A stretch of 64,000 bases of DNA, from contig CAVPQB010000004.1 in the NCBI GenBank assembly GCA_963707505.1, forward strand, positions 160,001 to 224,000. The letters are read 5' to 3'. The notes under the pieces are model-generated. The model had not been told where the DNA came from, searched no databases, and worked only from the letters and a program-made list of their open reading frames with translations. Positions 3,066-27,081 of this stretch are shown here, piece after piece. Every line of letters begins with the position of its first letter. Within the stretch, counting starts at the first letter, position 1. Origin of the DNA: an uncultured Gemmatimonadales bacterium. GTDB lineage: Bacteria > Gemmatimonadota > Gemmatimonadetes > Gemmatimonadales > Gemmatimonadaceae. The position numbers and the translations under genes are program-made.

Positions 3066-3310
3066 TCAGCTCGATCGCCTATCGGCATCGCTGATGTTCT
3101 CCAGCACTGCTTCCGCATTCCTTACCAACCGACTCCTCTTCGCCCGCTTCACCGCTGACTTCTTGAACGCCACTCTTAACTCCTCGTCGTCTATCGCGAG
3201 AACCTCCACCGCCAAGGTGCGCGCATCCGTCTCCCTTACCACTTCACGCGCCGCGAATGCGGGTTTTGTAGCGTCACGTGAGAACTTGATGTTCCAGGAA
3301 CATACAGATT
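3066..3310 (-). pseudogene. queG: Displaced queG 3'-end copy 1
   Basis: QSVCSWNIKFSRDATKPAFAAREVVRETDARTLAVEVLAIDDEELRVAFKKSAVKRAKRSRLVRNAEAVLE aligns without gaps to the C-terminus of QueG at 38737..39708. Confidence 0.9.
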
Positions 3311-3441
3311 GGGACGTGTGCCGGTATACCCATTTTGAGATCTCGCTCTCGACCGGCGGGCGAACGCTTGCTGCGAAGATCCGCGTCGGAGCTCGAGTCG
3401 TGCACACGAGTCAAGCCGTCGACCCCGATTACCATCGGATG

Positions 3442-5562
3442 CTACTTCGAGTTCGCGCCGGGAGCGCAGGTCCGTGCTCCGATCAGCACTTGTGCGAACT
3501 GTGGCTTGTCGGCTGGTGGGAAGGGAACCTTCCCGGCCCCTGCGGGCTTGATGCAATCGTACGCGAGCATGTACGCCATGACGTTGGCGTACGAGGCGGG
3601 AGAGAGCGATCCTGGAGCGGTGAGTGGCATCCGTTGCACCACCGCCGCGCGGAATTGCGACGCATTGAGGTGCGCGCGCGCGATGCCGGCTCCGGTGAGC
3701 GCAGGCGCGGACACACCCTGAAGTTGCGCGCCATGGCACGACGCGCAGTTGGTCGTGTACACCGTCGCGCCACTCGCGACCTGCTGCGCGGTGTACGGGA
3801 GCGAGTCCGATGCGGCGAGACCGGACTCCGTCGCGCCGCCGCGTACTGATGCCGCGAGCGCGGGCTGTCCAGTTGTGTCGTTCACGGTCGCGTGTGTCGG
3901 ACCGAGTTGGTACACGATGACGCGACTGCCGTGCGGGGCCGGAAGATTGGGTGTCTGCTGGTTTCCCGCGCGGCCCACCATCAGCGCGAGCTGTTCCTTG
4001 CCGTCGAGCATGAACGCGGAGATTGGGGCGACGATCGCGGAGCCCGTGTTCGTTTTCCAGAGCTGCTTGCCCGTCGCGACGTCGAGCGCGTAGACATTTC
4101 CGCCGAGATCGCTGGTGAAGACCAGCCCCGTCGCGGTGACGAGCGCGCCGCCCTCAGCGGGGTATGGCAGCGTGATGCGCCACCGGACGTGCCCCGTCGC
4201 CACGTCTACCGCGGTCACCACGCCCGTGCCATTCTCTCGCTTCGGGAGCGGTCCGCCGGCGTAGTTCTGTCCCGGGATGTATTCCGGCGTCTCGGTCTGC
4301 AGCTTCCAGATCCCGCATTCCTGCGTGCTGGGAACCACGAACAGATTGGATGACGGATCGTACGCACCGCCGTTCCACTCGACGCCACCGCCATGATTCG
4401 GACACGCGCGTGTTCCTTTCAGCGTCGGCACGGTTGTGGCCAGCCCAGTCTGGTCGCTGACCGCGAGCTGGTGTACCACCGTGCCAGTGCTCTGATCGAG
4501 GATGAGGAAGTTCCCGGCCTTGTCACCAACCGCGACCAACGCGCGCGGCGCACCGGAGACCTTTCCGCTGAATAGCACCGGGATCATGGCCGGATCGGCG
4601 TCGTGCGTGTCGTTTGCGATGATCTGGTGATACCATTTCACCTTCGGTACCGAGCCACTGATGTCGAGGGCGACGATCGAGTTGGAGTAGAGATCCGCGC
4701 CCTCGCGTCCCTTGAGCACCATGTCGGGCCCGGGATTGCCGGGCGCGACGAAGAGCGTGTTCGTTACCGGATTGATTGCGACTCCCGACCACACCGCCGC
4801 CGCGCCGTGAACCCAGGAGCTGTCCTTCCACGTATCACGCTTGAGCGTTTCCCAGTTCCACAGCCTCTTCCCGTCGCTGGTGCTGAACGCGCTCACGAGT
4901 CCCCGATTCCCATTGTCGCCGCCGGCTGTGCCGACAATGACGGCGCCTCGGTAGACGTACGACGCCATGGAGTACCAGCTGTTGGTCGTGTCGCGACATC
5001 CGACGACGTTCCACACGGGCTTGCCCGTGGCCACGTCGAGCGCGATGACGTGACAGTCCTGCGTCGCGACGATCACACGCCCGCCATCGACGCCAACGCC
5101 CCGATTGGCGGCGAATGCGAACACGAACGGACTGTATGGAAACGCCCACTTCAGCTGTCCTGTGTGCGCATCCAGCGCAAGCACATTGTCGTGTGGCGTC
5201 GCCACGTACATCGTGCCGCCGGTGATGATCGGCGACGCTTCCTGTTCACCGTCGTCGCGAATTCGAGTCTCCCATCCTTCGCCGAGCGACGCGACATTCG
5301 CGGACGTGATCTGTGTCAGCGGTGTGTAGCGATTGCCCTCGTACGTCCGCGCGGGGAGAACCCATTCATTGGCGTTCTGACTGGCGCGAAGGAGTTGATC
5401 ATTCGTCGTACCTGCACGTTGCCGTGCCTCGTTGCATGACGGGAACGATACGGCTGCCAGTGCGGTGGGTGCGATGAGCGTGATTGCGCGCCGCGTCCAC
5501 CAGCGGTGGGGAGCAGGGCTCGTTAGAGGCGGTTGCGTGTGCTTCGACGATGTCGACACCAT
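3442..5562 (-). CDS. PQQ-dependent dehydrogenase with C-terminal cytochrome c (quinohemoprotein-like)
   Basis: RYTPLTQITSANVASL, ANRGV, GAAAVWS, GNPGPD, YSNSIVALD, WYHQIIANDTHDAD, GGALVTATGLVF; Trp-docking PQQ repeats; CASCHG heme motif. Confidence 0.9.
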   Translation of the reverse strand: MVSTSSKHTQPPLTSPAPHRWWTRRAITLIAPTALAAVSFPSCNEARQRAGTTNDQLLRASQNANEWVLPARTYEGNRYTPLTQITSANVASLGEGWETRIRDDGEQEASPIITGGTMYVATPHDNVLALDAHTGQLKWAFPYSPFVFAFAANRGVGVDGGRVIVATQDCHVIALDVATGKPVWNVVGCRDTTNSWYSMASYVYRGAVIVGTAGGDNGNRGLVSAFSTSDGKRLWNWETLKRDTWKDSSWVHGAAAVWSGVAINPVTNTLFVAPGNPGPDMVLKGREGADLYSNSIVALDISGSVPKVKWYHQIIANDTHDADPAMIPVLFSGKVSGAPRALVAVGDKAGNFLILDQSTGTVVHQLAVSDQTGLATTVPTLKGTRACPNHGGGVEWNGGAYDPSSNLFVVPSTQECGIWKLQTETPEYIPGQNYAGGPLPKRENGTGVVTAVDVATGHVRWRITLPYPAEGGALVTATGLVFTSDLGGNVYALDVATGKQLWKTNTGSAIVAPISAFMLDGKEQLALMVGRAGNQQTPNLPAPHGSRVIVYQLGPTHATVNDTTGQPALAASVRGGATESGLAASDSLPYTAQQVASGATVYTTNCASCHGAQLQGVSAPALTGAGIARAHLNASQFRAAVVQRMPLTAPGSLSPASYANVMAYMLAYDCIKPAGAGKVPFPPADKPQFAQVLIGARTCAPGANSK

Positions 5563-5577
5563 AGGGAGTGTTCGAAC

Positions 5578-6252
5578 TCAGGTGGCCTGTGACCGGTCGT
5601 CCGCCGCTGTCCCCCCGCGCCGACGCGCCGTCGGGAGCTGCCAGTGGTTCCGCATCGCCATGACGCGCAACCCGATGCAGAGCGCGGCGCCAGCGATGCT
5701 GACGATCCCGGATGGGAGCTGGAGCCCGCGGCCGATCACGACGACGGCTGCGCCCGCGAGCGCCGCGACGGCGTAAAGATCCGCCCTCAGAATTACAGGA
5801 ACTTCCGACACGAGAATGTCGCGCGCCACTCCGCCGCCGACGCCGGTCACGACGCCGAGCAGCACCGCAGTGAGCGGCGCGAGATGAAAGGCAAGCGCCT
5901 TCGATGCACCGGTGACGGCGAACAGTCCGAGTCCCATGGCATCGAAGAGCAGTACCGAATTCCAGAGCCGGTCGACGAACGCCCCCCAGTAGAACGTGAC
6001 CAGGCCTGCGACGAGCGCCGCGGTGATGTAGCGCCAGTCCGCGATGCCTGGCGGCGGCACGGCGCCGATCAGGAGATCACGCGTGATTCCGCCCACGTTC
6101 GCCGCGGCGAACGACAGCACGAGCACGCCGAAGATGTCGAGCCGGTGCTTGACGCCGGACATTGCACCACTCAGCGCGAAGACAAACGTGCCGAGCAGAT
6201 CCAGCACCAGGGTGAGGGTGCTGATTGTGATCGGCGGAATGAGTGGCTGCAT
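5578..6252 (-). CDS. Trimeric intracellular cation channel family (UPF0126, YadS/YicG-like) membrane protein
   Basis: DLLGTFVFALSGA, LDIFGVLVL, GGITRDLL, DAMGLGLF, GVGGGVARDIL duplicated motifs. Confidence 0.92.
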   Translation of the reverse strand: MQPLIPPITISTLTLVLDLLGTFVFALSGAMSGVKHRLDIFGVLVLSFAAANVGGITRDLLIGAVPPPGIADWRYITAALVAGLVTFYWGAFVDRLWNSVLLFDAMGLGLFAVTGASKALAFHLAPLTAVLLGVVTGVGGGVARDILVSEVPVILRADLYAVAALAGAAVVVIGRGLQLPSGIVSIAGAALCIGLRVMAMRNHWQLPTARRRGGTAADDRSQAT

Positions 6253-6256
6253 GCGT

Positions 6257-7525
6257 TCAGGAATGCAGCCAGGCCTGTGCCGCCGTCACCATGGTCTCCA
6301 CACCAGTGTGCAGCGTGGGATCCAGCACCGGGGCAAAGCGCGGGTTGTGATTGGTCGGGATCTCGTTGGTCTTGCCTGCCGCTTTGGCTTTCGCATAAAG
6401 CTCCGGGTCGGTTCCGCCAACGAACCAGAACACCGATGGAACGTGCCACTCGGTGCCGAAGGATCCGAAATCTTCGCTTGCGGTTGATGGCTTGGTTTCC
6501 ACGACCTCACTTGCGGGAAAGTACGCCCGAAGCGCATCGACGACACGTTTCGTCGCGGTCGCATCGTTCACGAGGAGGGGATAGCGGTCCAGCGGTGTGA
6601 TGTCAGGCGTTTTGGGTGCGCCGGATGCCTCCGCTTCTGCGTTCACGATCCGCTTGATGGCAGCGAGCACACGCGTGCGCACGTTCTCGTCGAAGGTGCG
6701 CACGTTCAATTTGATGGTCGCATTGTCGGGGATGACATTCTCTTTCGTACCGGCCTGCAGCGCGCCGACGGTGACCACGGCGGCATCTGTCGGAGCGACC
6801 TCACGCGACACGATCGTCTGAAGACGCATCACCAGAGCGGCCGCCATCACCACGGGATCGATGCTGGCCTGCGGCATGGACCCATGGCCGCCGCGACCGA
6901 ACAGCGTGATCTGCAGGCTGTCGCCAGCCGACGTCATGACGCCGCTGCGCCAGCCGATGGTACCGGCGGGAATGCTCATCACGTGTTGGCCGAGAATTAC
7001 ATCTGGTTTCGGGAATCGCGCGAGGAGTCCGTCATCGATCATCGCCCGCGATCCTTCGGCGGTCTCCTCCGCTGGCTGGAAGACCGCCATGAGCGTCCCC
7101 TTCCAACCCGTGCGAACCTGTGAGAACAACGTGGTCGTGCCGATCAGCCATGTCACGTGCATGTCGTGACCGCACATGTGACCAACGGGCGTCGTGTTCC
7201 CATCCCGGTCCTTCGCGACGACGGCACTTGCGTACGGAAGTCCGGTCGCTTCCTTGATTGGCAGCGCGTCCATGTCGGCGCGCAGCATCACGGTGGGGCC
7301 GTCGCCATTTCGCAGCAGTCCGACGACGCCGGTCTTACCGACGCCGGTCGTCACATCGAAGCCCACCTTGCGGAGCCTGTCCGCCGCGATGCCCGCTGTG
7401 CGAGTCTCCTGCATCGAGAGCTCGGGGTGCGAGTGAATGTCGGTGTAGATCGACTTCAGGTCGGGGAGCAGTGCCGCGAGCCCGGCAAGGACAGGCTCCG
7501 CCGGGCGTTGAACAGGTGTTGTCAT
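6257..7525 (-). CDS. M20 family amidohydrolase (hippurate hydrolase-like)
   Basis: HSHPELSMQE, LRADMDALP, HMCGHDMH, FQPAEE, GRGGHGSMP, SEDF, TNHNPRF. Confidence 0.93.
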   Translation of the reverse strand: MTTPVQRPAEPVLAGLAALLPDLKSIYTDIHSHPELSMQETRTAGIAADRLRKVGFDVTTGVGKTGVVGLLRNGDGPTVMLRADMDALPIKEATGLPYASAVVAKDRDGNTTPVGHMCGHDMHVTWLIGTTTLFSQVRTGWKGTLMAVFQPAEETAEGSRAMIDDGLLARFPKPDVILGQHVMSIPAGTIGWRSGVMTSAGDSLQITLFGRGGHGSMPQASIDPVVMAAALVMRLQTIVSREVAPTDAAVVTVGALQAGTKENVIPDNATIKLNVRTFDENVRTRVLAAIKRIVNAEAEASGAPKTPDITPLDRYPLLVNDATATKRVVDALRAYFPASEVVETKPSTASEDFGSFGTEWHVPSVFWFVGGTDPELYAKAKAAGKTNEIPTNHNPRFAPVLDPTLHTGVETMVTAAQAWLHS

Positions 7526-7671
7526 GATCGATAACCTCGCGGGCGCCACGGCGCCCAGAGTGTCATGGTGAGAGCAACCGAAGGCGTGCACGATATGTGC
7601 CCGTAAAGGGCGCGCCGACGCTGTTCGATCCTTTGCGCCTTCCCCACGACTACGTAGAGCAGTCGCGCTCT

Positions 7672-7781
7672 TTCAAGGGCGATGCCCGGCGGGAACAGTG
7701 ATGGGTCACGTGCACCTCCACGTTGGTGACGTAGCGACAGCGTTGAGGTTCTTTGCCGAAGGCTTGGGTTTCGATCGCACT
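7672..7781 (+). pseudogene. VOC / catechol-2,3-dioxygenase (CatE-like) C-domain fragment
   Basis: FKG/MPAGTVMGHVHLHVGDVATALRFFAEGLGFD motif with a frameshift; no flanking domain. Confidence 0.7.
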
Positions 7782-8327
7782 GTGGGCGGATTCATGCGCC
7801 AATCGGATTCCACCAAGGGACAGATGGTTTGTCCCGGATTGACAACGCGCCACGTGCCGGAGCATGGCGCGCAAGCGAAAACGGTGAAGACATGACGACA
7901 ACGGTTGGCAGCACCGAGGAGCGAGCGGCTGATTGCGAGACCAGGATGCAGCTCAGGATTTTGGTTTTGCGTGCGGCGCTGCGAAAAGATTCGCTAAATG
8001 TGCGGTTGGCTCGCCTTGCCGCGCAGGTCGCGACCTCGCAAGGCGCGATCGCGCGGCTAGCGGCGATGGGAGAGTTCAACTGCCCACCATACGATCATTA
8101 CAACAGCGCTTCGAAGATACGACTCGCTGTTTCATGCATCTCGTGGAAGCGGCGAAACACCATCGTGGTCTCAAGAAGCAGTGGATCGAGTTTCTCGGCG
8201 AACAGCCCAATTCGGCCGTCGATCTGGTCGAGACGAGCGATGTCGAAGGCGAGCCTGCGGCGGCCTGAACTGAACTCCAGTGCAGCTCGTCGGCTAGGGA
8301 AGGTCTGAAGAACTTCGGAATGGATAC

Positions 8328-9361
8328 TCATGCTGTGATCTTCGCGCTGTCGCCCGCAGTGACTTCGTAAGTAGAGCCGGATACCATGGTCGCCGCATCG
8401 GAGGCAAGAAAGACAACTACAGGAGCGATGTCGTTCGGATCGATCCACGGCACGCCCAACGGGCTCGATTTTGCGAGTTCTTCACGCGCTGACTGTTCGT
8501 CCTTTGTGACATCACCGGTTGGCGTTTTGCCGCTCGTTTGCAAGGCTTGCGCATAGCGCTCCTCATGACGCGTGAGAGGCGTATCAACCAGTCCCGGAAC
8601 CAGGCAGTTCACGGTAATGCCACTTTTGCCCAGCTCGAGCGCGGCGGACTTCATCAGACCAATGAGTCCCCACTTCGACGCAGAGTACGCGCTGGCGTTG
8701 AAAGTCCCGTGCTGCCCCTGTGTGGACGTGGTGATGATCATGCGGCCCCTCTTGCGCCGCACCATTGCGGGCCCGAAGGCGCGCAAGACATTAGCTGTGC
8801 CGGTGAGGTTGGTGTCGATGGTGATGTGCCAGTCGGCGTCCTCCATCTCCATCAGGGGGTGGAACTGCTGAATTCCGGCGTTGGCGAACAGGATGTCGAC
8901 CGCGCCAAACGAGGACTCGATACGCTCCGCAGCCGCGCGCAGCGCCGGAAGGTTTCGCTGGTCGACAATATGCGACTGCCACTTGACCCCAAGCGTCTCG
9001 ACCAGTCTGCCGGTCTCCGCAAGGTCCTGCGGTGTCGAAGGCGTGACACCGGAGCGGGGATCGACGACTGCGCAGATGTCGAGCCCCGCTACGTTTGCCC
9101 CTGCGCCGGCGAGGGCAAGCGCGGCTGCACGGCCGATGCCACGCGCCGCACCGGTGACGACGGCGGTCTTGCCTTTCAGCGCGGTTGAAAGAAAGGTGTT
9201 GGTGGAGGGCTTATTGGCGGGACTGCCTGGCATCGGGTTCTCCGGGGACAACGACTGGAATGCGTGCGCCACAGTCGAGTTGCTGGATAGGAGCAGGGCC
9301 GCTGAGGCCTGCGTGACAAAAGCTCGACGAGTAAGCTCCGGTTCTTGGAGGGGTCTCGCAT
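8328..9361 (-). CDS. SDR family oxidoreductase, probably Tat-signal bearing (apparent frameshift right after ATG 9361)
   Basis: GKTAVVTGAARGIG, FANAGI, YSASKWG, VNCLVPGLVDTP; in-frame upstream ELTRRAFVTQASAALLLSS. Confidence 0.9.
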
Positions 9362-9487
9362 TTTGACCTACCGACGTCGGGTGAACTACAAGATGGGAAC
9401 AGCCTTATCTGGAATGGTGTTGATCTCAGCTTCAGACACGTGGGCGTGGGCCACGGCGACCTGCATCGGCACCGCGCGCATTGGTGA

Positions 9488-9677
9488 GGAAGTCCATAGT
9501 CCGCGCATCTTCTGTACCGTTGAAGACGATCATGCGGACTTGTCGTGAGATCCAGAACTGCCGCTCGCTTGCGTTTGAGTGCCAGTGCAGCTCGCGAATC
9601 GCTTCCGGCTTCAACGTGACGATGCCGCCCGAAGTCTTTGGCGAAGCGGGGAAGTTCTTCACGTCGATGATCTTCAC
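9488..9677 (-). pseudogene. Oxalate decarboxylase-like bicupin fragment
   Basis: KIIDVKNFPAS...VTLKPEAIRELHWHSNASERQFWISRQVRMIVF...ARTMDF matches the OxdC second cupin motif RELHWHxNxxEW; truncated at both ends. Confidence 0.8.
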
Positions 9678-10066
9678 GTTGCATTTTCCGCTGGAACGTG
9701 CGTCGCATCGTGCTTGTGTGGAATGTGTGTGGTGACCTGGTGGGTCCGCGGAGGATCACCACCGAGCGCTCGGCGCGGCGATATCTGCGTGACGGTACTC
9801 GACATTCCATGTGGCGCTCGCCGCGCTGGCGTGGTGCGGTCGAATACCGGACGCGGCCGTTCACACATTCCCGCATTCACATCTTTGGCTTATCCGCCGC
9901 GAGCGCTTCCGTATTTATCCCCAGCCAGACATCGGGCGCCGCGGATTGCGTGGGCACGACCTTGCTTACACCGCGAATCGTGAGCACCCCCCCAGCCGCG
10001 GCAGGCGCGGGAAATGCAGGCGGTCGTTTGACAGTGCATCCGTCACTTCATCAACGGAAGGAAACC

Positions 10067-10504
10067 GTGGCGAACGAAGAACGCAACATGCAGCTCATGC
10101 AGACCCTGGACGATGCTTGGAACGCGCAGGACATGGGTACCTTCGACAAGCGCCATCGTAAGGAAGTTGTGGTGCGCTGGCCGGGAAAAACGCCCACCAA
10201 CGGAATCGATGCGCACCACCAGGAGGCGATCGATTTCTTCAAGACATTTCCGGATCAGCACCTCGTCAATCGCCCGTATCGTGTCTTTTTCGCGAACGGC
10301 GACTGGACTTGTTCGATCGCTCACTTCACCGGCACCATGACGGGCCCAATGCAAGGGGCCGACGGCAAAGTGATTCCACCAACCGGCAAGGGATTCGACG
10401 TGGACTTCTGCACCGTGGCTCACTGGGACAAGGATGGTCAGATCATCGAAGAGAACCTCTTCTACGACCTCGTCACCTTCATGCATCAGATCGGACTCGG
10501 ATAA
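10067..10504 (+). CDS. SnoaL-like ester cyclase / polyketide cyclase family protein
   Basis: GTG start after GGAAGGA; LDDAWNAQD, FFKTFPDQHL, FTGTMTGPM, IPPTGKGFDVDFCTVAHW, IIEENLFYD. Confidence 0.88.
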   Translation: MANEERNMQLMQTLDDAWNAQDMGTFDKRHRKEVVVRWPGKTPTNGIDAHHQEAIDFFKTFPDQHLVNRPYRVFFANGDWTCSIAHFTGTMTGPMQGADGKVIPPTGKGFDVDFCTVAHWDKDGQIIEENLFYDLVTFMHQIGLG

Positions 10505-10547
10505 GAATCCGATCGCGCAAGGGCGCGGTAACCGGGGGATTGCACAA

Positions 10548-11008
10548 CATGACATCGCGTCCAGAATCCGTAGCTGTGGTACCACGCACAATGCCGCGGA
10601 TCGCCACCGTCGACGAGCGTTACGAATCTTACAACGTCGAGGTCGCGGAAGTCATCGCCGGCTAATGGGCACGACGTTGTTCACGCTGGTCCGTCTCGGG
10701 AGGGGCTGCATCTCCATGCACCGTGCGTGCGCGGGCACCCGGGCGGCGTAACACTGCTGGCGATTAACAACAGCCAAACGCAGGCCTCGTCGCTTCAGAT
10801 CCCAAGCGCTGCGGAGCGTTATACCTTGAGCGCGCAGCAGCTCGAGGCCACCGACATCGAACTCAATGGACATGAACTGACGTTGGGAGCTAACGATGCG
10901 TTGCCGGAGCTTCAAGGGACGAGTGTTCCGGCCGGAACCGTAACGCTCGCACCGGCTACCAGCACGTTCCTCACGATTGCGGATGCACGAGACGCGAGTT
11001 GCCGATGA
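10548..11008 (+). pseudogene. Internally deleted paralogue of the GH79-like gene at 12790..14484
   Basis: PRTMPRIATVDERYESYNVEVAEVIAG is fused directly to RRLMGTT...RGHPGGVTLLAINNS...DASCR; the middle ~1.1 kb is absent. Confidence 0.9.
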
Positions 11009-11069
11009 CACTGCAGAGTGACGTCCCGGTTCCATGCAGGTTTCGATGCTCGACGTGAACATCGAGAAT

Positions 11070-12536
11070 TCAGGCCTGCGTCTTGGTTCCCTTGGGCACT
11101 GTGAGCATGATCGAGACTATGGACACCACGACCATCAGCACGTTGAAGCCGAGCGCAATGATGGCGGCCTCCCGGACGGCAAGGTTGTCCTGGCGGCCGA
11201 GGAAGGTGATTACGCCGTCGAGCCAGTTCGCGCTCGCATTGTTGCCGCTCAGCGCAGTGAAGATCGCAGCGGAAATCGCCACGCCGAAGGCGGCGCCAAG
11301 CGACGACGCCATCTTGTAGATGCCCGAACCAGAACCCGTCTGTGTAGCTGGCAGGTTCGATAACGCGGCATCGGTTGAAGGGGTCGCGTAGAACGCCAGA
11401 CCGACACCGAACAGCGTATAACCGACGCTCGCGAGGATCTTGTAGTCCGACAGCCGCAGGTTGGCGGGTGACACCAACAGGATTGCCAGGCCCGTGATCA
11501 GGCAGCCCCAGATCATCGGTTTGCGCGGCCCGAAGCGTTGCAGAAGTTTCTCGCCCACTCGAATGAAGGCGATGATGGCGATCGCGTAACCGAGCGTCAA
11601 AAAGCCGGCCTGTTGGGCGTTCATGTTGCCGCCGAGCTGCACCAGTTGTAGCGACACGATCTGCGTACCGGCGGTCCCGTTGATCAGGAAGTTGGAGATC
11701 GTCGCGCCGGTGAATGTTGTGTTCCTGAACAGGCTGAAGTCGAAGAACGCATTGGACGCTCTGTTCTCGATGCGGAAAAACAGCCAGCCGAACACTACCG
11801 TTACCGCGAGGAGAACCAGACCAGTCGGACTGCTCCAGCCCAGCTTGTTGCCCTGCGTCACAAGTACTTCCAGTGCGACCATCGTGATCATGAACGCAAG
11901 CACGCCGGACAAATCGAACTTGTACGCGCCCGTTGTTTCCGCCTTGCTCTCGGGGGTGCCACGCATCATCCACAGTCCGAGCACGCTCACAGCGATGGCG
12001 ACCCAGAAGATGGAGCGCCAGCCAAAGTTCTGCGACATCAGGCCACCGACCAGCGAGCACAGGCCCGAACCGCCCCAGGAGCCGATCGACCACATGCTGA
12101 TGGCGCGCTGGCGCTCGGGACCGTCCCAAAAAGCTTTTACCAGCGCCAGACTGGCCGGCATGATGCAGGCGGCTGACAGCCCTTGCAACGCACGGCCCAC
12201 AAGCAGGACTGCTGTTGCCAACTGACCCTGCGGCGTGATGGCCACAAGCAGCGAGCCGGCGATGCTCAAGTAAAAGCCAATGCGAGTGACCTTCACCCGA
12301 CCAACCCGATCGGCCAACCCACCCATCACGACGATGAAGATGCCCGAGAACAGCGAGGTAATGGCCACCGCAACGTTCATCATGCTCGCATTCACGCCAA
12401 GGTCGCGGCTCATGTCAGGCGCGATGTTGAGCGTCGTCTGGGCAAACAGCCAGAACGCGACGACACCCATGATGATGCCGAACAGCAGTCGATCGTTGCC
12501 CTTGTATGGCATCGTCGATTGAGCAACGGTATTCAT
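11070..12536 (-). CDS. MFS transporter, DHA2 (NorB/NorC-like) family
   Basis: LFGIIMGVVAFWLFAQTTLNIAP, GGLADRVGRVK, GRALQGLSAACIMPASLAL, YATPSTDAAL, GIYKMASSLG; GGAG RBS before ATG 12536. Confidence 0.92.
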   Translation of the reverse strand: MNTVAQSTMPYKGNDRLLFGIIMGVVAFWLFAQTTLNIAPDMSRDLGVNASMMNVAVAITSLFSGIFIVVMGGLADRVGRVKVTRIGFYLSIAGSLLVAITPQGQLATAVLLVGRALQGLSAACIMPASLALVKAFWDGPERQRAISMWSIGSWGGSGLCSLVGGLMSQNFGWRSIFWVAIAVSVLGLWMMRGTPESKAETTGAYKFDLSGVLAFMITMVALEVLVTQGNKLGWSSPTGLVLLAVTVVFGWLFFRIENRASNAFFDFSLFRNTTFTGATISNFLINGTAGTQIVSLQLVQLGGNMNAQQAGFLTLGYAIAIIAFIRVGEKLLQRFGPRKPMIWGCLITGLAILLVSPANLRLSDYKILASVGYTLFGVGLAFYATPSTDAALSNLPATQTGSGSGIYKMASSLGAAFGVAISAAIFTALSGNNASANWLDGVITFLGRQDNLAVREAAIIALGFNVLMVVVSIVSIMLTVPKGTKTQA

Positions 12537-12789
12537 ACGGGTCTCCATTGCGACGGCGCTGGCTTGACAGCTCCGTCGCCGAGAAAACAACCGGCGATGT
12601 GAGCTGCTTCCTGGCCTGACGGAGTATCTACAATCGCTGCGCGCCCAGCAAGTGTATGGATGGGACGACGACCGCTTTTGCGCCGGCAGCAGCAAGTGGG
12701 ATCACCTCTTGCAGTGACGTGCGCCAGGCGAGTACCGCGCACTGTGATTTTGCCTTTGAGTCCGGTCGCCGCCCATCTCTGGAAGGGAA

Positions 12790-14484
12790 TTGATGATGGT
12801 GCGCAACAACAGGCCCGTCGCACTTGGTGCGGTAGCGGTCGCGGTAGCGGTAGTACTAGTAGTAGTGTCGTTGGCCGCTGCGATGCGCAGCACGGCGCGA
12901 ACTTCCGCGGTGCCAGTTGCGGTATCCGTCTCGCTGACACCACGCACCATGCCACGCATTGCGACGGTCGATGAGCGTTATCAATCGTACAACGTTGAGA
13001 TGGCCGAGGTGATCGGCGGCAACTTCTGGAAGCCGTACGACGCGCAGCGCACGACCTCGAAGGCCAGTGGACCTCCGGCAGAAGCCATGTCGGGTAGCAC
13101 TGCGCCTCAGGTGGTAGGCGAGGATACGAGCATGTTCCAGGCGCGCGCACCGATCGACCTGTCGAACGCGCGGTTGCGTAAGCTGACAGCGGCGCTCGGG
13201 CCAGCCTACATGCGCACGAGCGGAACGTGGGCGAACTCCGTCTACTTCGACGATGCCGACAGTCCCGCACCGAAGACCGCACCGAAGACCGCACCGAAAG
13301 GGTTCATGGGCGTCCTGACACGCCCGGAATGGAAGGGCGTCGTCGACTTCACGCACGCCGTGAATGCCAACCTCGTCACGTCCTTCACGATCAGCGCGGG
13401 CGTCCGCGACACGGCAGGCGTGTGGACGCCGATAGAGGCCCGGAAGTTCGTCGCGTACACGACAGCCATCGGCGGACGGATTGCCGGAGCAGAATTCTTC
13501 AATGAGCCTGACATGCCGGTGTACGGCGGCGCGCCGGCTGGCTACACCGCCGCGGATTATGCGCGGGACTTCGCCATCTTCCGCCGATTCGCGACGCAGG
13601 CCGCTCCCGACATGCGGATCGCCGGTCCGGGCTCCGTTGGCGAAGGCGTGTTGATGCCTCTGATGGGTGGAGACACGGCGGCCATAGGAGTGGTAAAGAC
13701 AGCGGATATGCTCTCCGCGTCACCGCGGCCCATCTTCGACATCTTTTCCTATCATTTCTACGGTGCGGCGTCTATCCGATGCGCCTCGATGGGCGCGGGT
13801 GCGCAGACCACTCCTGATTCCGCGCTGTCGGAAAGCTGGCTCGCGCGCACCGACCGGAGCTACGCCTATTACGTGTCAGGTATCCGAGATCGATTCGAGC
13901 CGAACAGCAAACGCGTGTGGATCACCGAGACCGCGGATGCCGCGTGTGGCGGTAATCCGTGGGCGAAGACGTTCCTGGATTCGTTCCGTTATGTAGACCA
14001 GATGGGGCGCCTGGCCAGGAAGGGTGTCACGGTCATTTTCCACAACACGCTCGCCTCCAGCGAATACGGGCTGCTCGATCAGAAGACCTTTGAGCCGCGT
14101 CCCAATTACTGGGCGGGGTTACTGTGGCGTAGACTGATGGGCACCACAGTGCTCGAATCAGGCGTCCCGATCACATTGGGGCATCACGTCTACGCCCAGT
14201 GCATGCGCGGTCATCCCGGTGGCGTTACGCTGCTCGCGATCAACAACAGTCGGACGCAATCCGCGTCGATTGAGCTTCCGATCGCGGCGAGCCGTTACAC
14301 ACTTACCGCCGCGACGCTGCAGGATACGCACGTCCAACTGAATGGGCGTGAGCTCGCGCTGGGACCCAATGATGCGCTGCCAGGTTTGCAAGGCGTGCGT
14401 ATCGCCGCGGGACGCGCGGTGCTCGCGCCGGTGAGCATCACCTTTCTCACAATGGCAGACGCTGGCAATGCAAGCTGTCGTTGA
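12790..14484 (+). CDS. Secreted GH79-like (heparanase / beta-glucuronidase-like) glycoside hydrolase
   Basis: Signal peptide; LGPAYMRTSGT, EFFNEP (acid/base), SYHFY, VWITETADA (nucleophile), YGLLD, PRPNYW. Confidence 0.82.
   Translation: MMMVRNNRPVALGAVAVAVAVVLVVVSLAAAMRSTARTSAVPVAVSVSLTPRTMPRIATVDERYQSYNVEMAEVIGGNFWKPYDAQRTTSKASGPPAEAMSGSTAPQVVGEDTSMFQARAPIDLSNARLRKLTAALGPAYMRTSGTWANSVYFDDADSPAPKTAPKTAPKGFMGVLTRPEWKGVVDFTHAVNANLVTSFTISAGVRDTAGVWTPIEARKFVAYTTAIGGRIAGAEFFNEPDMPVYGGAPAGYTAADYARDFAIFRRFATQAAPDMRIAGPGSVGEGVLMPLMGGDTAAIGVVKTADMLSASPRPIFDIFSYHFYGAASIRCASMGAGAQTTPDSALSESWLARTDRSYAYYVSGIRDRFEPNSKRVWITETADAACGGNPWAKTFLDSFRYVDQMGRLARKGVTVIFHNTLASSEYGLLDQKTFEPRPNYWAGLLWRRLMGTTVLESGVPITLGHHVYAQCMRGHPGGVTLLAINNSRTQSASIELPIAASRYTLTAATLQDTHVQLNGRELALGPNDALPGLQGVRIAAGRAVLAPVSITFLTMADAGNASCR
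13267..13299 (+). repeat. 12-bp in-frame tandem repeat (APKT x2.75)
   Basis: gcaccgaagacc gcaccgaagacc gcaccgaaa. Confidence 0.85.
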
Positions 14485-14598
14485 CCTCAGCCGCTCCGCG
14501 CAGTCGAGCGTGCGTATCAAATCCGTGTTGCGGGCCTCGCGAGACGATTTTCCCGCCGGAGTTGCGCCTGCATCTGCTGCGCTCTTTTTGCTCTCGCG

Positions 14599-15198
14599 TT
14601 ACGATGAGATGTTCGTGCCCGCCGCATCGGTCGTGCGCGGCAATGCGGTGTAGACGCGCGTGATGTATCCCAGAAACTCGTTCATGTAGTTTGCGAGGAA
14701 CTCGGCAGTGGACTCGACCGTGACCTCTCCATCGTCAGTTATGAGGCCCGGCGTGAACGGGATGTACGCCTCGATGGCGTTCATCAGTGGCGAGTTGCAA
14801 AAGGCGAGGATGCTCCGGAGGTGCTGCTGGGCGACCGCCGTACCAATCTTGCCCGGTGACGTGCCGATGATCGCCGACGGCTTGCGCGCGAAGGAGTTGG
14901 TGCCCCAGGGGCGGCTCGCCCAGTCAATGGCGTTCTTGAGACCGCCGGGGATCGACCGATTGTACTCCGGCGTCACGAAGAGCACGGCGTCCACGGAGGC
15001 TATCGCGTCCTTCAATGCGCGACCGGCGGGCGGGTAGTCCTTGTCGTAGTCGTACGAGTAAAGTGGCAGCTCGCCGATCGGAATCTCCCTCAGTTGCAGC
15101 TCCGGCGGCGCGAGGCGCCTGAGGGCAAGGGCGAGCTTCCGGTTGATCGATTCCTTCGCGAGGCTGCCGACGAAATACCCAACCGTGAATGTGGTCAC
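14599..15198 (-). CDS. NADPH-dependent FMN reductase (ChrR/YieF-like)
   Basis: VGSLAKESINRKLA, LFVTPEYNRSIPGGLKNAIDWASRP, GTAVAQQHLR; GTG start after GAGGA. Confidence 0.93.
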   Translation of the reverse strand: MTTFTVGYFVGSLAKESINRKLALALRRLAPPELQLREIPIGELPLYSYDYDKDYPPAGRALKDAIASVDAVLFVTPEYNRSIPGGLKNAIDWASRPWGTNSFARKPSAIIGTSPGKIGTAVAQQHLRSILAFCNSPLMNAIEAYIPFTPGLITDDGEVTVESTAEFLANYMNEFLGYITRVYTALPRTTDAAGTNISS

Positions 15199-15436
15199 GT
15201 GCAGTCCTCGAATAGGGGGCGTCGTCGGTGGCGGACGACCCGCGTAACGTTGCAAGAATGACACCGCGTCCGTATCTGCTGTTCGTCACGATCGACCCCG
15301 CGTTCTGTTTCGCGACCGATCGGCACCGTCACGGCCGCGGGCCCATCTTTAGCATTAAGCGGAGCGTCGGCAAGCCGCCGAGTTTCCACCCGCAGGGTCA
15401 GGGTACACAGTCGTCTCCAATGGCCGGAGGGCCATT

Positions 15437-16153
15437 ATGACCGCCGATCACCTCACACCGCCGCAGAGCGACTCCCAGTTCGCACGTCACCATCCCACTG
15501 AATACTTGACCGCGTACGCGATTGCAGGTGCCATTGGCGTCATCGTTCTGATCGTGCTTTTCCTCTTCATCGGGCACGAGATCCCGACGCATGACGCGCT
15601 CACGCGCGGCGATGCAGCCGTCAACGCGTGGATGGAGTCGCACAACACGGAGCCGGGCGAGACGATCTTCACGTGGGTGAGCTACATCGGCGCACCCGTG
15701 CTCGCGGCGACGGTCGCGATCAGTCTCATCGTGTTCGCGCGGCGGCATGACTGGTTCCACGTGTGGGCCGTGGCACTCGTGACCGGCGGCGGCCTTCTGC
15801 TGAGCACGATCCTCAAGTTCGTCTTCCATCGTGCGCGGCCGCTTACCGCCGCTGAGTTCATGACGCACCCGACTTACAGCTTTCCAAGTGGGCATGCGAT
15901 GAACTCCATGATCACGTACGGCTTCCTGCTACTGCTGCTGCTCGACCACGTGCACGAGCGCGGCAAGCGCGTCGCACTCGTTCTTGGCGGCCTCGTGATC
16001 ATCGGGGCGATTGGCTTCAGCCGCGTGTATTTGGGTGTGCATTTCGTTACCGACGTGATCGGCGGCTGGATTGCGGGCGCGGCGTGGCTGACGGTGGGGA
16101 TCGGCGGTTATCGTTTCGCGCAGCGCCGCTTCGCGCGGCGGCAGCTGATGTGA
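15437..16153 (+). CDS. PAP2 family membrane phosphatase
   Basis: KFVFHRARP, SFPSGHA, SRVYLGVHFVTDV motifs. Confidence 0.93.
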   Translation: MTADHLTPPQSDSQFARHHPTEYLTAYAIAGAIGVIVLIVLFLFIGHEIPTHDALTRGDAAVNAWMESHNTEPGETIFTWVSYIGAPVLAATVAISLIVFARRHDWFHVWAVALVTGGGLLLSTILKFVFHRARPLTAAEFMTHPTYSFPSGHAMNSMITYGFLLLLLLDHVHERGKRVALVLGGLVIIGAIGFSRVYLGVHFVTDVIGGWIAGAAWLTVGIGGYRFAQRRFARRQLM

Positions 16154-16209
16154 CAGGGACGGCGCTTGCCGGAGTTGCGCCGCTTGCATTCACGAGCACG
16201 GCTGACGCA

Positions 16210-16275
16210 ATTGCGCTGCAGTCCTGCGAGCTTCGCGCGCTTCACCGGTGACTTCTTGAACACCGTGCGAAATTG
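16210..16275 (-). pseudogene. queG: Displaced queG 3'-end copy 2 (short)
   Basis: QFRTVFKKSPVKRAKLAGLQRN vs QueG EFSAAFRKSPVKRAKLAGLQRN. Confidence 0.85.
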
Positions 16276-16351
16276 TCCACTGTGCGGCAAACTCTAATGG
16301 TCCCAGCTACTTAGAGTTCGTTGTCGCGTCCCCGCGCGACCGTTTAAACAT

Positions 16352-16367
16352 CAGCCCCTGCGTTCAA
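16352..16367 (+). promoter_or_regulatory. CAGCCnnnnCGTTCAA motif, putative AraC-family site upstream of the GNAT operon
   Basis: cagcccctgcgttcaa, with a partial repeat cgtttaa 20 bp upstream; same motif at 19784, 20280 and 20301. Confidence 0.6.
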
Positions 16368-16442
16368 GCAAGGGGCACCGGGCATTCGGTAATGTGCAGC
16401 TGCGATAACACATGTCGCGTCACGCACACCCAGGATACCGCC

Positions 16443-17099
16443 ATGCCGTTCGCCCTCCGACACCGTAGCGACCCGACTCCGCGTCTTGAGTCGCTACCGA
16501 CATTTTCCGTCCGCCGCGAGGAGGACGCGTCCGTCATGGCCGCGCTGCAGCAACGCGATGAAGCTGACATGGTGCGCCGCTTGGATACCGGACACCGCGC
16601 CTATGTCGCGATGTGCGATGGTCAACGCGCCGCGTGGGGATGGGTTGCGACCCGCTTCGCCGAAATTGGCGAGGTCGGTGCCTCGTTCACTCTCCCTGCC
16701 GGCGAACAATACCTGTGGAACTTCGTTACGCTCGCCGACTATCGCGGGCGAGGTATCTACCCACGGCTGCTCGATGCGATCGTGCGTGCGGAGTCGCGCG
16801 AAGCCGCGCGATTCTGGATCGCATATGCGCCGGAGAACCACGCGTCGGGAGCGGGCATCCGGAAGGCGGGCTTCGTCGATCTCGCCGAGTTGTCGTTCGA
16901 TGCAAGCGGCCGGCCCGCGCTCACACCGCTATTGCCTGGTGGTGCCCGGGTCGCGTCGCGAGTGCTCGGACTGCCCGAGAAGCGGGAGTCGCTCGCGCCG
17001 TGCTGGCGCTGCGTGCGCGCGGGTCGCGGGAGTATGTCCTGCGCACCTGGGCAGTGCCGATGCGACTATCAGCGGCCTGCATCGGGATGTGCATCGTGA
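16443..17099 (+). CDS. GNAT family N-acetyltransferase with Cys-rich C-terminal tail
   Basis: YLWNFVTLADYRGRGIY, ENHASGAGIRKAGF; tail PCWRC...SC...CRC...GC. Confidence 0.85.
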   Translation: MPFALRHRSDPTPRLESLPTFSVRREEDASVMAALQQRDEADMVRRLDTGHRAYVAMCDGQRAAWGWVATRFAEIGEVGASFTLPAGEQYLWNFVTLADYRGRGIYPRLLDAIVRAESREAARFWIAYAPENHASGAGIRKAGFVDLAELSFDASGRPALTPLLPGGARVASRVLGLPEKRESLAPCWRCVRAGRGSMSCAPGQCRCDYQRPASGCAS

Positions 17100-17202
17100 C
17101 ATACATCGGGACATACATCGGAGCATGCCGCGTGAGCGCCCACGTACCGCGCATTGGAAGCCACACATGGACACGCACGCCGACACGTACATGGAGTCAC
17201 AC

Positions 17203-17718
17203 ATGCAGATGATGAGCGAAGTTTCGACGGCAACCGCGTACGCAACCGCGGTGACGACAATACTGCTCGGCACAGCGGCTGGCGGGACCTTTACCGTTCT
17301 GGCGTACAGTGTTCCCAAGTACGCGAAGCCGTTCCTCTCGGCCGCCCTTTTCGTCACGGCGATGCTCTACGTCGGTCTGGCGCTCGCCGGTGGCGCTGGT
17401 CCCGCGTGGCTCACGGTGGAGATCGTCGGCGTTCTCGTGTACGGCAGTGCATCGCTCCGCGGACTGCGCGGGTCGGCGTGGTGGATCGTCGCCGGCTGGG
17501 CGCTCCATCCCATCTGGGACATCGCACATCACGTCGCACACACTGGTCACGCCTTCGTTCCCTCGTGGTACGCGATGGCATGTCTGGGCTTTGACATAGC
17601 CGTTGCAGCCGTGATCGCGTCACGAACGTGGCATGGCGCCACCGCACTGTCGCAGTCTCTTCCGCGATGGGTCCCGCAGTCACTTCTACAGTCTCTTCCA
17701 CAATGGGTTCGGCTATGA
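17203..17718 (+). CDS. Membrane protein (DUF6010-like)
   Basis: WLTVEIVGV...WWIVAGWALHPIWDIAHH...VPSWYAMACLGFD; GGAG RBS before ATG 17203. Confidence 0.75.
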   Translation: MQMMSEVSTATAYATAVTTILLGTAAGGTFTVLAYSVPKYAKPFLSAALFVTAMLYVGLALAGGAGPAWLTVEIVGVLVYGSASLRGLRGSAWWIVAGWALHPIWDIAHHVAHTGHAFVPSWYAMACLGFDIAVAAVIASRTWHGATALSQSLPRWVPQSLLQSLPQWVRL

Positions 17719-18830
17719 CCGCGATGCGTCCGACGGTGCTATCCACAGACGCGCGTGCAATGCGTGTCGAGCGGTACGACACCGTTGTCATCGGCGGAAG
17801 CCAGGCCGGCCTCGCCGTCGGGTATCATCTCGCGCGCCGTGATGTCGACTTCGTGATTCTCGATGCCGAGCGACGCGTGGGCGACGCATGGCGCAAACGA
17901 TGGGACTCGCTCCGCCTATTCACGCCGGCCGCGTACAGCGGGCTCCCTGGCATGGCGTTCCCAGCGCCGCCATCGCATTTGCCCGACAAGGATGAGGTGG
18001 CCGACTACCTCGAGCGCTACGCCGAGCGGTTCGATCTGCCGATCCGGTGCGCGATGCGCGTTGATTCGCTCGCCTCCGATGGCGAGTGGTATACCGTCCA
18101 CGCCGGCGACGTACGAATCGAGGCCGCAAATGTTATCGTCGCGACCGGTCCGCTTCGGTCGCCGCGTATTCCCTCGATCGGCGCCTCGCTCGCGCCCGAT
18201 ATTCTTCAGATCCACTCGAGCGAATACCGCAATCCGTTCGAACTTCCTGACGGGCCCGTGCTGGTCGTGGGAGCCGGGAACTCGGGCGCGCAGGTCGCCC
18301 TCGAGCTTGCGAGGTTCCGGAAGGTGTGGCTCGCTGGCTCGTCCACCGGCTACATCCCGCGCAGAATTCTCGGCCGCGATGTGTTCTCGTGGATCTGGCC
18401 CTTGATGTCGCGCGCGACGGCCGATACGCGGATTGGAAGACGATTGCGCCAACGCGCCACACGCGGCGGCGACGCGCTAATCGGAATTCCGGAGCGTACG
18501 CTCGTCGATGCGGGCATCGTCCGCCTAGGTCGCGTCACGGAACAGCGCGGTGGTCTCCCGCTCTGCAATGGCACCGTCGTGCAACCGAGCGTCATCGTCT
18601 GGTGCACAGGATTCGCGTCGGACTACAGATGGATCGCGCTCCCCGTCACCGACGAGCGCGGGCTTCCGCTCCACCATCGCGGCGCCGCGACCGGGCTGCC
18701 GGGTCTCTATTTCGTCGGCCTTCGCTTCCAGCATCGCATGACGTCCTCCCTGCTCGGCGGCGTCGGCGAGGACGCGGCATACATCGCGGACATCGTGGCC
18801 CGCCGTGCGGAAGGGGTGCGGTTCGCCTGA
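17715..18830 (+). CDS. Flavin-containing monooxygenase-like NAD(P)/FAD oxidoreductase (CzcO/ArsO-like)
   Basis: VIGGSQAG, WRKRWDSLRLFTP, HSSEYRNP, VVGAGNSG, VWCTGF, GLYFVGL; ATGA overlap with the upstream gene. Confidence 0.92.
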   Translation: MTAMRPTVLSTDARAMRVERYDTVVIGGSQAGLAVGYHLARRDVDFVILDAERRVGDAWRKRWDSLRLFTPAAYSGLPGMAFPAPPSHLPDKDEVADYLERYAERFDLPIRCAMRVDSLASDGEWYTVHAGDVRIEAANVIVATGPLRSPRIPSIGASLAPDILQIHSSEYRNPFELPDGPVLVVGAGNSGAQVALELARFRKVWLAGSSTGYIPRRILGRDVFSWIWPLMSRATADTRIGRRLRQRATRGGDALIGIPERTLVDAGIVRLGRVTEQRGGLPLCNGTVVQPSVIVWCTGFASDYRWIALPVTDERGLPLHHRGAATGLPGLYFVGLRFQHRMTSSLLGGVGEDAAYIADIVARRAEGVRFA

Positions 18831-18900
18831 GGTAGCTCCGCGTTTTGCGAGAATCGCCTTCTGGCGGTAAACTCCGGGTGACTGCCACCATCGGGTGACC

Positions 18901-19704
18901 ATGAGTAGCAAGGATAGCAAGAGCACCACCAGCGTGACCGGCGGCATCGGGCATTTCGTGTCGTGGGATGGCGGCTGCGTCTTGATCGGACGCAACGTCG
19001 GCGTCATCCCGCCGCACGCACACTACGCGATTCAGATCGCGTTCGGCACGGAGCACGGCGTGCGCTTTCGCTCGCAGGAGAGTGATGCGTGGACCGAGTA
19101 CGGCGGTGCGATCATTCCCTCGCGCCACCCGCACTCCATGGACGCGACGCACGTGCGCGCGAACGCCGTGTTGTTCGTCGAGCCGGAGACGCGCGAGGGA
19201 CGCGCGTTGCGAGAGCGCTACCTGCAGGGCGGCATCGCTGCGCTACCGGACGACCTGCTCGCCGATACCCGTCGGGCATTGTTCTCCGCGTGGGAAGAGC
19301 AGCGGAGCAGGCACGCTGTCGCTGACGTGGCGCAGCATGTGATTCGTACACTCGCGGGAGGCGTCGGTCCGACCGTCACATCGGACAAACGCATTCTGCG
19401 CGCGATTACTTACATCAAAGCCCATATCAACGGTCCGATCACGCTCGACGAAGTAGCGCGCGAGGCGTGCCTGTCGCCGAGCCGCTTCCGTCATCTCTTT
19501 GTCGAAGAGACGGGGACGGCATTCCGCCCGTACGTCCTCTGGCGCCGCTTTCTGCGTGTGTGGGAGTTGTTGACGGCTGGAAGCTCGCTGTCGACCGCAG
19601 CGCATGCGGCGGGCTTCGCCGACGCCGCGCATCTCGCGCGGACGTCGCGGACCATGTTCGGTTTTCCGCCGTCGGCCATTCAGCTCGCAGCGCCACTCGA
19701 TTAG
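18901..19704 (+). CDS. AraC family transcriptional regulator
   Basis: N-terminal PHAHYAIQI cupin-like motif; C-terminal TLDEVAREACLSPSRFRHLF...AAHAAGFADAAHLARTSRTMFG. Confidence 0.95.
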   Translation: MSSKDSKSTTSVTGGIGHFVSWDGGCVLIGRNVGVIPPHAHYAIQIAFGTEHGVRFRSQESDAWTEYGGAIIPSRHPHSMDATHVRANAVLFVEPETREGRALRERYLQGGIAALPDDLLADTRRALFSAWEEQRSRHAVADVAQHVIRTLAGGVGPTVTSDKRILRAITYIKAHINGPITLDEVAREACLSPSRFRHLFVEETGTAFRPYVLWRRFLRVWELLTAGSSLSTAAHAAGFADAAHLARTSRTMFGFPPSAIQLAAPLD

Positions 19705-19783
19705 CCTCGCACCGTCGAGAGAGGCTTGAGAACGGACGGATGGAACATCTTGTTGTGCACACCGCGGCATCCGCGCGTCGATT

Positions 19784-19799
19784 CAGCCCTTTCGTTCAA
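19784..19799 (+). promoter_or_regulatory. CAGCCnnnnCGTTCAA motif upstream of the Cys-rich peptide gene
   Basis: cagccctttcgttcaa, identical to 20280..20295. Confidence 0.65.
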
Positions 19800-19923
19800 T
19801 CCCGTGAGGCACATGAGGAGATAACGTGAAGCTTACGACGACCGCTGTCCGCAACTCCGCGGGCCGGTACCCGGTTCAACGGGACGTCGCGACGCAAACA
19901 CTGAATTCTCCGAGGAATCTCTC

Positions 19924-20127: not shown

Positions 20128-20171
20128 GGAAGTAACATCGCGTCAGCATTGCGTCGGGAAGTCTGTACCAC

Positions 20172-20203
20172 ACGGGGCGCGGTTCTTGAGAACCGCGCCC
20201 CGT
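20172..20203. terminator. GC-rich hairpin after the Cys-rich peptide gene
   Basis: acggggcgcggttct-tg-agaaccgcgccccgt, a perfect 15-bp inverted repeat. Confidence 0.7.
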
Positions 20204-20279
20204 TGTGCATTCACTACGCGTCAAGGAACGCACCGTAGGTGGAATGATAGCCGGCGCCAATCGAGCATTCGCCGCGCTT

Positions 20280-27050: not shown

Positions 27051-27081
27051 CCCGCCGCGGGAAAGCGGTCAGGGTGTAACT

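Follow-up and report, generated by a model that had tools for sequence, protein, structure and literature searches.

The window analysed here, a stretch of 64,000 nucleotides from an uncultured Gemmatimonadales bacterium (source genome G000), contains an intact gene for epoxyqueuosine reductase (queG) and two short conserved arms, each joined to a displaced queG 3' end. We consider it very probable, at roughly 0.88, that both arms belong to attR junctions of large serine recombinase (LSR) elements that cut queG at the CA of CxxCQ, and that each encodes a 25-residue tail of the circle form of the enzyme. Under this sequence-based assignment, queG would represent attB, the arm with the element end attP, queG with the element end attL, and the arm with the host end attR. 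The window sites are assigned to the last type because the arm is joined to a host end, mirrors the element end, and carries an outer motif whose counterpart on the queG side lies 5 bp farther in, as in A118 attP/attB. The features concerned are these:

3312..3368, minus strand: arm 1, putative element-side (P) half of an attR junction, 57 nt kept in relatives (profile, alignment, palindrome)
3310..3311, minus strand: candidate crossover dinucleotide CA (TG on the plus strand) of site 1, the first two bases of the Gln codon of CxxCQxxCP
3328..3333, minus strand: outer motif AYGGNT of arm 1, at -22..-17 (motif alignment)
3310..3387, plus strand: putative recombinase C-terminal tail frame (WDVCRYTHFEISLSTGGRTL...), usual codon-25 stop lost
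about 3084..3309, minus strand: displaced host-type queG 3' end (B' half) of site 1, diverged, with CSW for CPW
22496..22552, minus strand: arm 2, putative second P half (alignment, profile), codon-25 stop lost
22494..22495, minus strand: candidate crossover dinucleotide CA (TG on the plus strand) of site 2
about 22259..22493, minus strand: displaced host-type queG 3' end of site 2, with an in-frame TGA
16186..16284, minus strand: third, short queG 3' fragment, without arm and without CA crossover, likely a deleted junction
38737..39708, minus strand: intact queG, 323 aa, host type (CPWNVKF), putative empty attB, CA at 38978-38979
38991..38996, minus strand: inward-shifted AYGGNT in the resident queG
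22496..38736, no strand: first unit, 16.5 kb, with three Ser/Thr kinase genes with PD40 repeats, two ice-binding-like genes and OmpA
3312..22258, no strand: second unit, about 19 kb, with metabolic and transport genes

Both long queG fragments start at the Gln codon of CxxCQxxCP, and the sequence before them is not queG. An earlier note on this DNA, made from the letters alone, had reported an ungapped match of 48 of 65 positions between 3301-3365 and 22485-22549, and our recount gave the same figure. The 65-mer stands as the arm except for its first 9-11 nt, which are queG tail plus the CA core; the arm proper is identical at 41 of 57 positions (3312-3368 versus 22496-22552), and the next-best ungapped match of arm 1 in the 3.66-Mb genome reaches 33 of 57. 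The crossover, expected near 3307-3312 and 22491-22496, was located at the CA of 3310-3311 and 22494-22495, and the proposal that the segment is the element-side arm of a hybrid attachment site holds, with the same CA found in queG at 38978-38979; the two arms may have come by separate insertions or jointly on one composite element. As described in the note, the similarity stops abruptly, falling to background level beyond ~60 nt from the crossover; to the left of the arms, the likeness continues for ~220 nt as the queG 3' end. When the source genome was searched with a DNA profile of the arm only, derived from 184 arms found elsewhere, the two sites alone were recovered (E 3e-15 and 8e-7), the third-ranked match having an E-value of 0.49.

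The earlier note had itself raised a degenerate QueG-like peptide as an alternative, and had named two findings that would overturn its proposal, a match to full-length divergent queG alleles and a single larger segmental duplication. That the arm is a degenerate piece of such an allele, or that both copies stem from one duplication, is barely conceivable, even though the sense frame (VRxPVESxISKxxYRHxSQ) is open in the QueG register and the two frames share their third positions. The resident queG does differ here, as had been stated: in the same register, each arm copy agrees with it at 14 of 57 positions. The first two CxxC cysteines are indeed missing from the arm translations, and no Cys motif is found in 165 sense translations; conservation ends at -57 and the flanks are unrelated. 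The degenerate-peptide reading was tested as well and likewise not borne out. The antisense frame has fewer stops (13) than the queG frame (28), and the arm profile yields only 2 matches at E <= 10 among 36 full queG genes. Two further candidates were rejected. A tyrosine-recombinase origin, considered given the resemblance of the tail sequence RY(N/T) to the catalytic-Tyr motif, was dropped because no such enzyme is near the sites and the bases after the CA vary. Tyrosine integrases at dnaJ2 are the subject of PMC6109161. A 1034-codon antisense frame running through a site in locus L100 merely mirrors a kinase gene on the opposite strand. When the 40-residue antisense peptides were used as a search profile, they retrieved 39 short unnamed ORFs and no Pfam domain.

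The arms form a family that is broadly represented in the lineage of the window. Multiple matches to the QueG C-terminal query occurred in 17 of the 36 genomes of the window's family (26 matches in G031), some of the extra matches being frameshift splits, and in none of the 24 genomes of two sister families. An exact pattern search of GTDB genomes yielded 111 stretches; 98 of 106 loci are labelled Gemmatimonadota, and the other eight, located on short MAG contigs, are perhaps misbinned. These matches indicate that the window itself belongs to the Gemmatimonadaceae. When the pattern was relieved of the TGGAA requirement, 34 of 251 family genomes matched, and the reversed control gave 0 matches. 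The unpublished genomes G007, G017 and G028 enter only the denominators of the QueG C-terminal query, the PF07508 scan and the TGGAA-free pattern. From 185 non-gene candidates, 166 arms were kept and 19 dropped (more than 11 mismatches to the 26-nt motif, or contig end), window arm 2, with 12 mismatches, being among the latter; a later set (n=187) allowed 12 mismatches and included more loci. Altogether, about 190 arm sites were collected, nearly all from Gemmatimonadota; neither the arm pattern nor the enzyme was found in viral contigs, phage records and plasmid records. Conservation of the arm spans -57 to -1. Over its inner 30 nt, the arm is conserved at every codon position (0.86-0.89), and the outer part shows a codon pattern (0.76, 0.68, 0.51). 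The CA is present in 183 of 186 arm sites and is followed by variable bases.

The recombinase that would account for these sites was detected next to queG in other genomes. Among the 251 family genomes, 51 contain a total of 64 PF07508 matches, and the inspection of 48 of these neighbourhoods revealed a related LSR directly facing queG in nine genomes (G081, G103, G111, G134, G143, G166, G193, G244 and G252); with one metagenome contig and four genomes of other families, the total comes to 14 loci, some with partial or frameshifted genes. The LSR gene converges on queG and runs antisense over the replacement queG 3' end as far as the CA, with an overlap of about 110-150 codons. Both LSR proteins scanned contain PF00239 followed by PF07508 above the cut-off, and all eight full-length LSR rows contain the motif YxRKS, which we take to be the catalytic serine motif. 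The zinc ribbon PF13408 gave no match at E <= 0.1; C347, C350 and C391 are invariant. Weak sequence matches connect the enzyme with the A118 integrase and SPbeta YokA (E 7e-4 to 7e-3). In an AlphaFold model (pTM 0.31, 10 sequences), residues 1-577 are folded, with two long helices at 416-516, and residues 580-725 have pLDDT <50; the queG-overlapping region is predicted to be disordered.

The conserved part of the enzyme has no stop of its own, and the frame continues to the CA. Of 67 database homologues, 58 are at least 600 aa long and 57 of these 58 read to the crossover, where 28 stop, 26 continue into the queG 5' part and the remaining 3 end in different tails. LSR-free queG genes served as a control; in 14 of 23, this antisense frame is uninterrupted over the 3' end as well, so that antisense openness carries little weight and the missing stop of the enzyme is the stronger point. 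The five complete elements range from 18.6 to 34.7 kb, and the 55 ORFs of three of them include MobA/MobL, Rep_1, small resolvase, restriction-modification, Hma-like and SEFIR/TIR genes, a content of mobilisation, replication and defence genes that fits mobilisable defence islands. More distant relatives of the enzyme are encoded at L183:6141-8060 in G081 (30%) and L192:1-1494 in G063 (40-44%); the former likely has another target given that no queG is seen beside it. In G166, a second copy of the N-terminal 165 residues of the enzyme lies directly upstream of the full gene (L190:7754-8329), and the queG element of G252 contains a second, unrelated large serine recombinase (L191:5507-7363).

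Read in the frame of the enzyme, the arm encodes W-E-M-C-R-Y-N-R-F-E-I-x-L-x-T-G-x-R-T-L, and it likely doubles as the 25-residue C-terminal tail of the enzyme on the circle. The split-recombinase tail that the earlier note had offered as an alternative fits too, and is the same object as the att arm rather than a competing reading. A stop occupies codon 25 in 63 of 164 arms (TAG 34, TGA 19, TAA 10), against 0-10 at the adjacent codons, and TAC or TAT is found there in only 3; the use of all three stops and the near absence of TAC/TAT speak for a stop codon and against a DNA motif. The stop is absent in the other 101 arms. An internal stop in the enzyme frame occurs in 13 of 164 arms, compared with 148, 62, 28, 39 and 78 for the other five frames. 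The pN/pS ratio is 0.31-0.69 over tail codons 10-19 and 0.85-1.2 over codons 20-24, in a test that is blind to which strand is selected and has small counts in the closest class; in the 13 closest disjoint pairs, codons 10-19 give 0.31 (18 synonymous and 13 non-synonymous changes). Three database homologues have tails that look arm-like by eye and do not score against the tail profile, so that the tailed form of the enzyme is a deduction and not an observation. Prediction of a complex between enzyme residues 225-590 and the tail peptide gave a score of 0.01, which is evidence neither way. In rumA-targeting serine integrases, the C-terminus is described as differing between the integrated and excised forms (PMC4701971), and for the Mx8 integrase, integration is said to swap the C-terminus and alter activity (PMC6070905), in both cases according to the portions of these papers that treat the integrase.

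The queG ends fall into recognizable types. All 14 LSR-side ends read CP[YF]x[RH]KF and have a HEAT-like extension, and all 22 LSR-free queG genes read CPWN. Among the arm sites, 174 of 187 are W-type and 3 of 187 Y-type, the W count being skewed upwards because the exact search pattern demanded TGGAA; only 2 of 57 database homologues imply W. From column 31 onwards, 123 of 128 arm-site tails resemble an LSR-free queG more closely than an element end. Arm sites followed by Y-type queG ends were observed at L212:2489 (G193), L219 (G143:C87:33809) and L062:5039, and could be insertions into an older attL scar or recombination hybrids. In other families of the class, the element ends (L202, L205, L206, L211) read CPFxRKF, not CPYNxKF.

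Arm and element end together form a near-palindrome centred on the CA, with up to 21 of 24 positions matching. For the nearest arm and its own element end, the scores per 24 nt are 21 in G103, 18 in G081, 17 in G193, 16 in G244 and 14 in G166, where six later arms reach 19-20 of 24 with the element end; the queG 5' half reaches 5-10 of 24. On average, 166 arms score 16.6 against element ends versus 10.4 against their actual neighbours (per 24 nt). When paired with eight element-type queG ends, arm 1 of the window reaches 16-19 of 24; arm 2 reaches 12-16 of 24 with such ends. The motif AYGGNT occupies -22..-17 in 142 of 186 arms and the mirror position in element ends, and in 34 of 36 queG 5' halves it is found at -17..-12, that is, 5 bp inward; in the right half of 22 host-type queG genes, the shifted motif was not seen. 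The outer motif of A118-type sites is similarly shifted by 5 bp between attP and attB in the site comparison of PMC3783163, and by analogy with that system, AYGGNT is likely a binding motif of the zinc-ribbon domain. Both window arms are probably decayed and dead, judging from the loss of the codon-25 stops, the altered inner segment of arm 2, which recurs in an arm of G016, and the in-frame stop in its tail.

In many genomes, arm sites follow one another in rows of units that lack a recombinase. The longest rows contain up to 22-26 sites, about two dozen; in G031, 22 pattern matches are accompanied by one LSR remnant. A PF07508 match of any kind is present in 13 of the 34 arm-bearing genomes, and the queG enzyme in at least 7 of them, leaving 21 without a PF07508 match at E <= 1e-5. 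The units are 0.8-19.2 kb long, with a median of 3.6 kb that is biased short by the 20-kb limit on fetched loci (n=101, both ends inside one fetched locus), and 15 first units, those next to queG, are of 1.1-16.5 kb. As judged from 65 representative ORFs, the recurrent cargo includes hydrolases and kinases as well as PIN and further toxin-antitoxin-like genes. The 188 sites followed by sufficient DNA yielded 14 pairs with shared cargo (85% identity or more), 12 of these with unrelated upstream DNA; in six shared-cargo pairs, a unit that completes queG in one genome follows an arm in the other. In 10 of 12 shared-cargo pairs, the cargo is at least 9 points more alike than the tail over its first 75 nt, indicating that units often have no clean start at the CA. 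The two closest pairs each have one boundary at the CA: L005/L079 (98%) begins there, and L004/L099 (98%) ends there. Units change neighbours between genomes, with tails that are often hybrid. In one row, the same cargo start occurs twice, 93% alike (L061:3054 and 7712, minus-strand count), and at L010:14990 in G031 the resident queG tail is closer to the arm-site tail of L118, from another genome, than to the tails of its own row, as expected if a first-slot tail were swapped in.

Simple tandem insertion fails to explain these rows because only 3 of 187 arm sites have Y ends and only two orphan units with an LSR remnant (98% alike) were found among the fetched units. These two combine a W-type site with an element-like tail, which suggests that the first orphan attR of a row may have come from an attL repaired by recombination. 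Rows lie directly behind full elements in G081, G103 and G166, and the units are flanked by attR-type sites or the empty attB, not by attL. We envisage that attP x attB integration would let the end of the element repair queG, shift the host queG end to a position behind the arm, and cut the 25-residue tail off the enzyme. Given a first orphan attR, no unusual reaction would be required. A visiting element would integrate in front of the older units; excision with the nearest attR would leave the rest of the row, and excision with a farther attR would carry units off with the element, so that units are dropped or picked up and an empty queG is restored. Homologous recombination between queG tails of 220-330 nt likely reshuffles the units as well. 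Accretion of this kind would keep the arms under selection as enzyme tails, and the window would represent the state after the departure of the enzyme, with an empty queG and two decayed arms.

Rows may grow by LSR-driven accretion, by homologous recombination in the queG tails, or by both, with about even odds. Accretion is supported by the clean CA boundaries in the two closest pairs, the rows behind full elements, and the host-type ends of LSR-free queG genes. Homologous recombination or conversion between tails is indicated by the hybrid tails, both those of the 10 of 12 shared-cargo pairs and that of the window, whose resident tail agrees with an arm-site tail of G018 at 94 of 120 positions near the CA and 111 of 120 farther out. 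A more extreme version, to which we assign somewhat less than an even chance and which bears on row growth and not on the identity of the arms, holds that the arms derive from an LSR but that the rows were built and shuffled mainly by homologous recombination, through the queG tails and the conserved 60 nt around the CA, with the orphan arms as passive scars. The hybrid tails would then be expected, as would the 21 arm-bearing genomes without a PF07508 match and the lost codon-25 stop in 101 of 164 arms and in both window arms; however, passive scars hardly accommodate the CA boundary in each of the two closest pairs, the pN/pS of 0.31 on tail codons 10-19, or the conservation of the inner 30 nt at all codon positions.

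We regard as decidedly improbable an integron-like cassette mechanism, in which an enzyme acting in trans would recombine attR-type sites directly with the queG attB and regenerate both at each step. LSR-free units with host-type ends in the first slot, such as the 3.65-kb kinase unit of G018, together with the short median unit length and the toxin-antitoxin-like and kinase cargo, are in keeping with such a mechanism, but ordinary attP x attB and attL x attR steps give the same states, the arm paired with a host end is only weakly palindromic (10.4 of 24 on average), and in the serine-integrase model as laid out in PMC3783163, attR does not recombine with other sites without RDF. Less improbable, but still rather doubtful, is a broader view of LSR-driven accretion, under which the rows would be a working cassette library of a visiting LSR element, each orphan arm being recruited at excision as the attP half, so that the element is loaded with the units in front of that arm and the enzyme gains a new C-terminal tail, and the tail serving as a built-in switch between the integrated and circular states.

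Integrons likewise consist of a row of small recombinase-less gene units behind one site, with toxin-antitoxin-like cargo. Unlike integrons, the present system has no IntI (no PF00589 match in or near the window), no resident recombinase and no attC hairpin (no Rfam match), and its repeat combines a gene fragment with a double-stranded site of serine type. Closer parallels are found among the integrative elements. The streptococcal ICE serine integrases in rumA, as characterized in the relevant part of PMC4701971, also involve an LSR in a protein-coding gene and an att site within the integrase gene. These ICEs disrupt their target, whereas queG stays intact because the element brings a full replacement 3' end, over which the enzyme is coded antisense; they also differ in target and phylum, and the same part of PMC4701971 does not describe rows of orphan sites. 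With the A118/LI-type systems, as presented in the site analysis of PMC3783163, the queG system shares a pseudo-palindromic attP with ~25-bp halves and a central dinucleotide, as well as the PF00239 + PF07508 architecture. The 5-bp inward motif is common to both, but here is confined to the left attB half, and the attP halves of the queG system must also encode QueG and the enzyme tail. Mx8 likewise has attP inside the integrase gene and swaps the C-terminus on integration, but is a phage with a tyrosine integrase, and antisense double coding with the target is not described in the corresponding section of PMC6070905.

The recombinase-less units resemble CIMEs, decayed units with att sites that pile up at one target; the example tested in the portion of PMC5704250 considered here involves tyrosine integrases and a tRNA end, in contrast to the serine enzyme and protein-coding gene of the present system. 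The window units have lost the integration and transfer genes, as CIMEs have by definition, but do not retain both attL and attR, so that they act like CIMEs outside the written definition. In the Islander survey, only 4 tandems of three or more were recorded among 3919 islands, with an integrase needed per member, according to the survey description in PMC4383910. Already known, then, are the enzyme class, att sites inside the integrase gene, and the accretion of decayed units; new, as far as the literature found allows us to judge, are the queG target, the long antisense double coding that would repair queG, the putative conserved excision-only tail, and the length of the rows. In the literature search, no paper was found that links queG to an integrase, a serine recombinase or island insertion, nor one on integron-like tandem gene cassettes with a serine recombinase, and queG is not mentioned in the text or supplementary files of PMC10083194, the full LSR database of which could still hold the family.

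These results add a serine integrase family with att sites deduced at queG, and suggest that the problem of inserting into a protein-coding gene was solved by coding 110-150 codons twice, with QueG and the integrase on opposite strands. They also imply that rows of units without a recombinase, as long as those of integrons, can be left behind by a class of enzymes with strict directionality, so that genes are gained by a route that would escape island finders relying on integrases. The two forms that the enzyme would naturally take, with and without the 25-residue tail, would allow a direct test of the C-terminal swap in directionality.

No recombinase or relaxase family was detected by Pfam among the 107 window ORFs, nor any Rfam match within the window, and Pfam, tblastn and profile searches identified no LSR copy in the source assembly, which is 83% complete. 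Four public sequencing runs contained <0.3 of the words of the window region; when mapped on 22000-40500, they gave no joint at the sites among the matches listed, kinase paralogues having swamped the signal. The leading kinase gene of the first unit comes after queG in the window and in G014, and after an arm in G018, where the 3.65-kb LSR-free kinase unit stands before that arm and the shared kinase gene. The kinase cluster (27760-38596), with PD40/WD40-like repeats, includes a minus-strand gene and another that is split across 31159-33857. Genomes G015, G016, G018 and G020 have close copies (89-97%) whose similarity exceeds that of their queG genes, a difference that suggests recent transfer. 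The adjacent region, 23052-27050, encodes two ice-binding-like (PF11999) proteins, one with a PEP-CTERM motif, and OmpA, and an 81% similar block is found in G012 (L027). The second unit includes genes for a PQQ dehydrogenase, an M20 peptidase, SDR, MFS, GH79, flavoproteins and a MauG-like peroxidase; at 20205-22342, matches to the MauG-type di-haem peroxidase occur in two overlapping frames, a pattern that suggests frameshifts or assembly errors.
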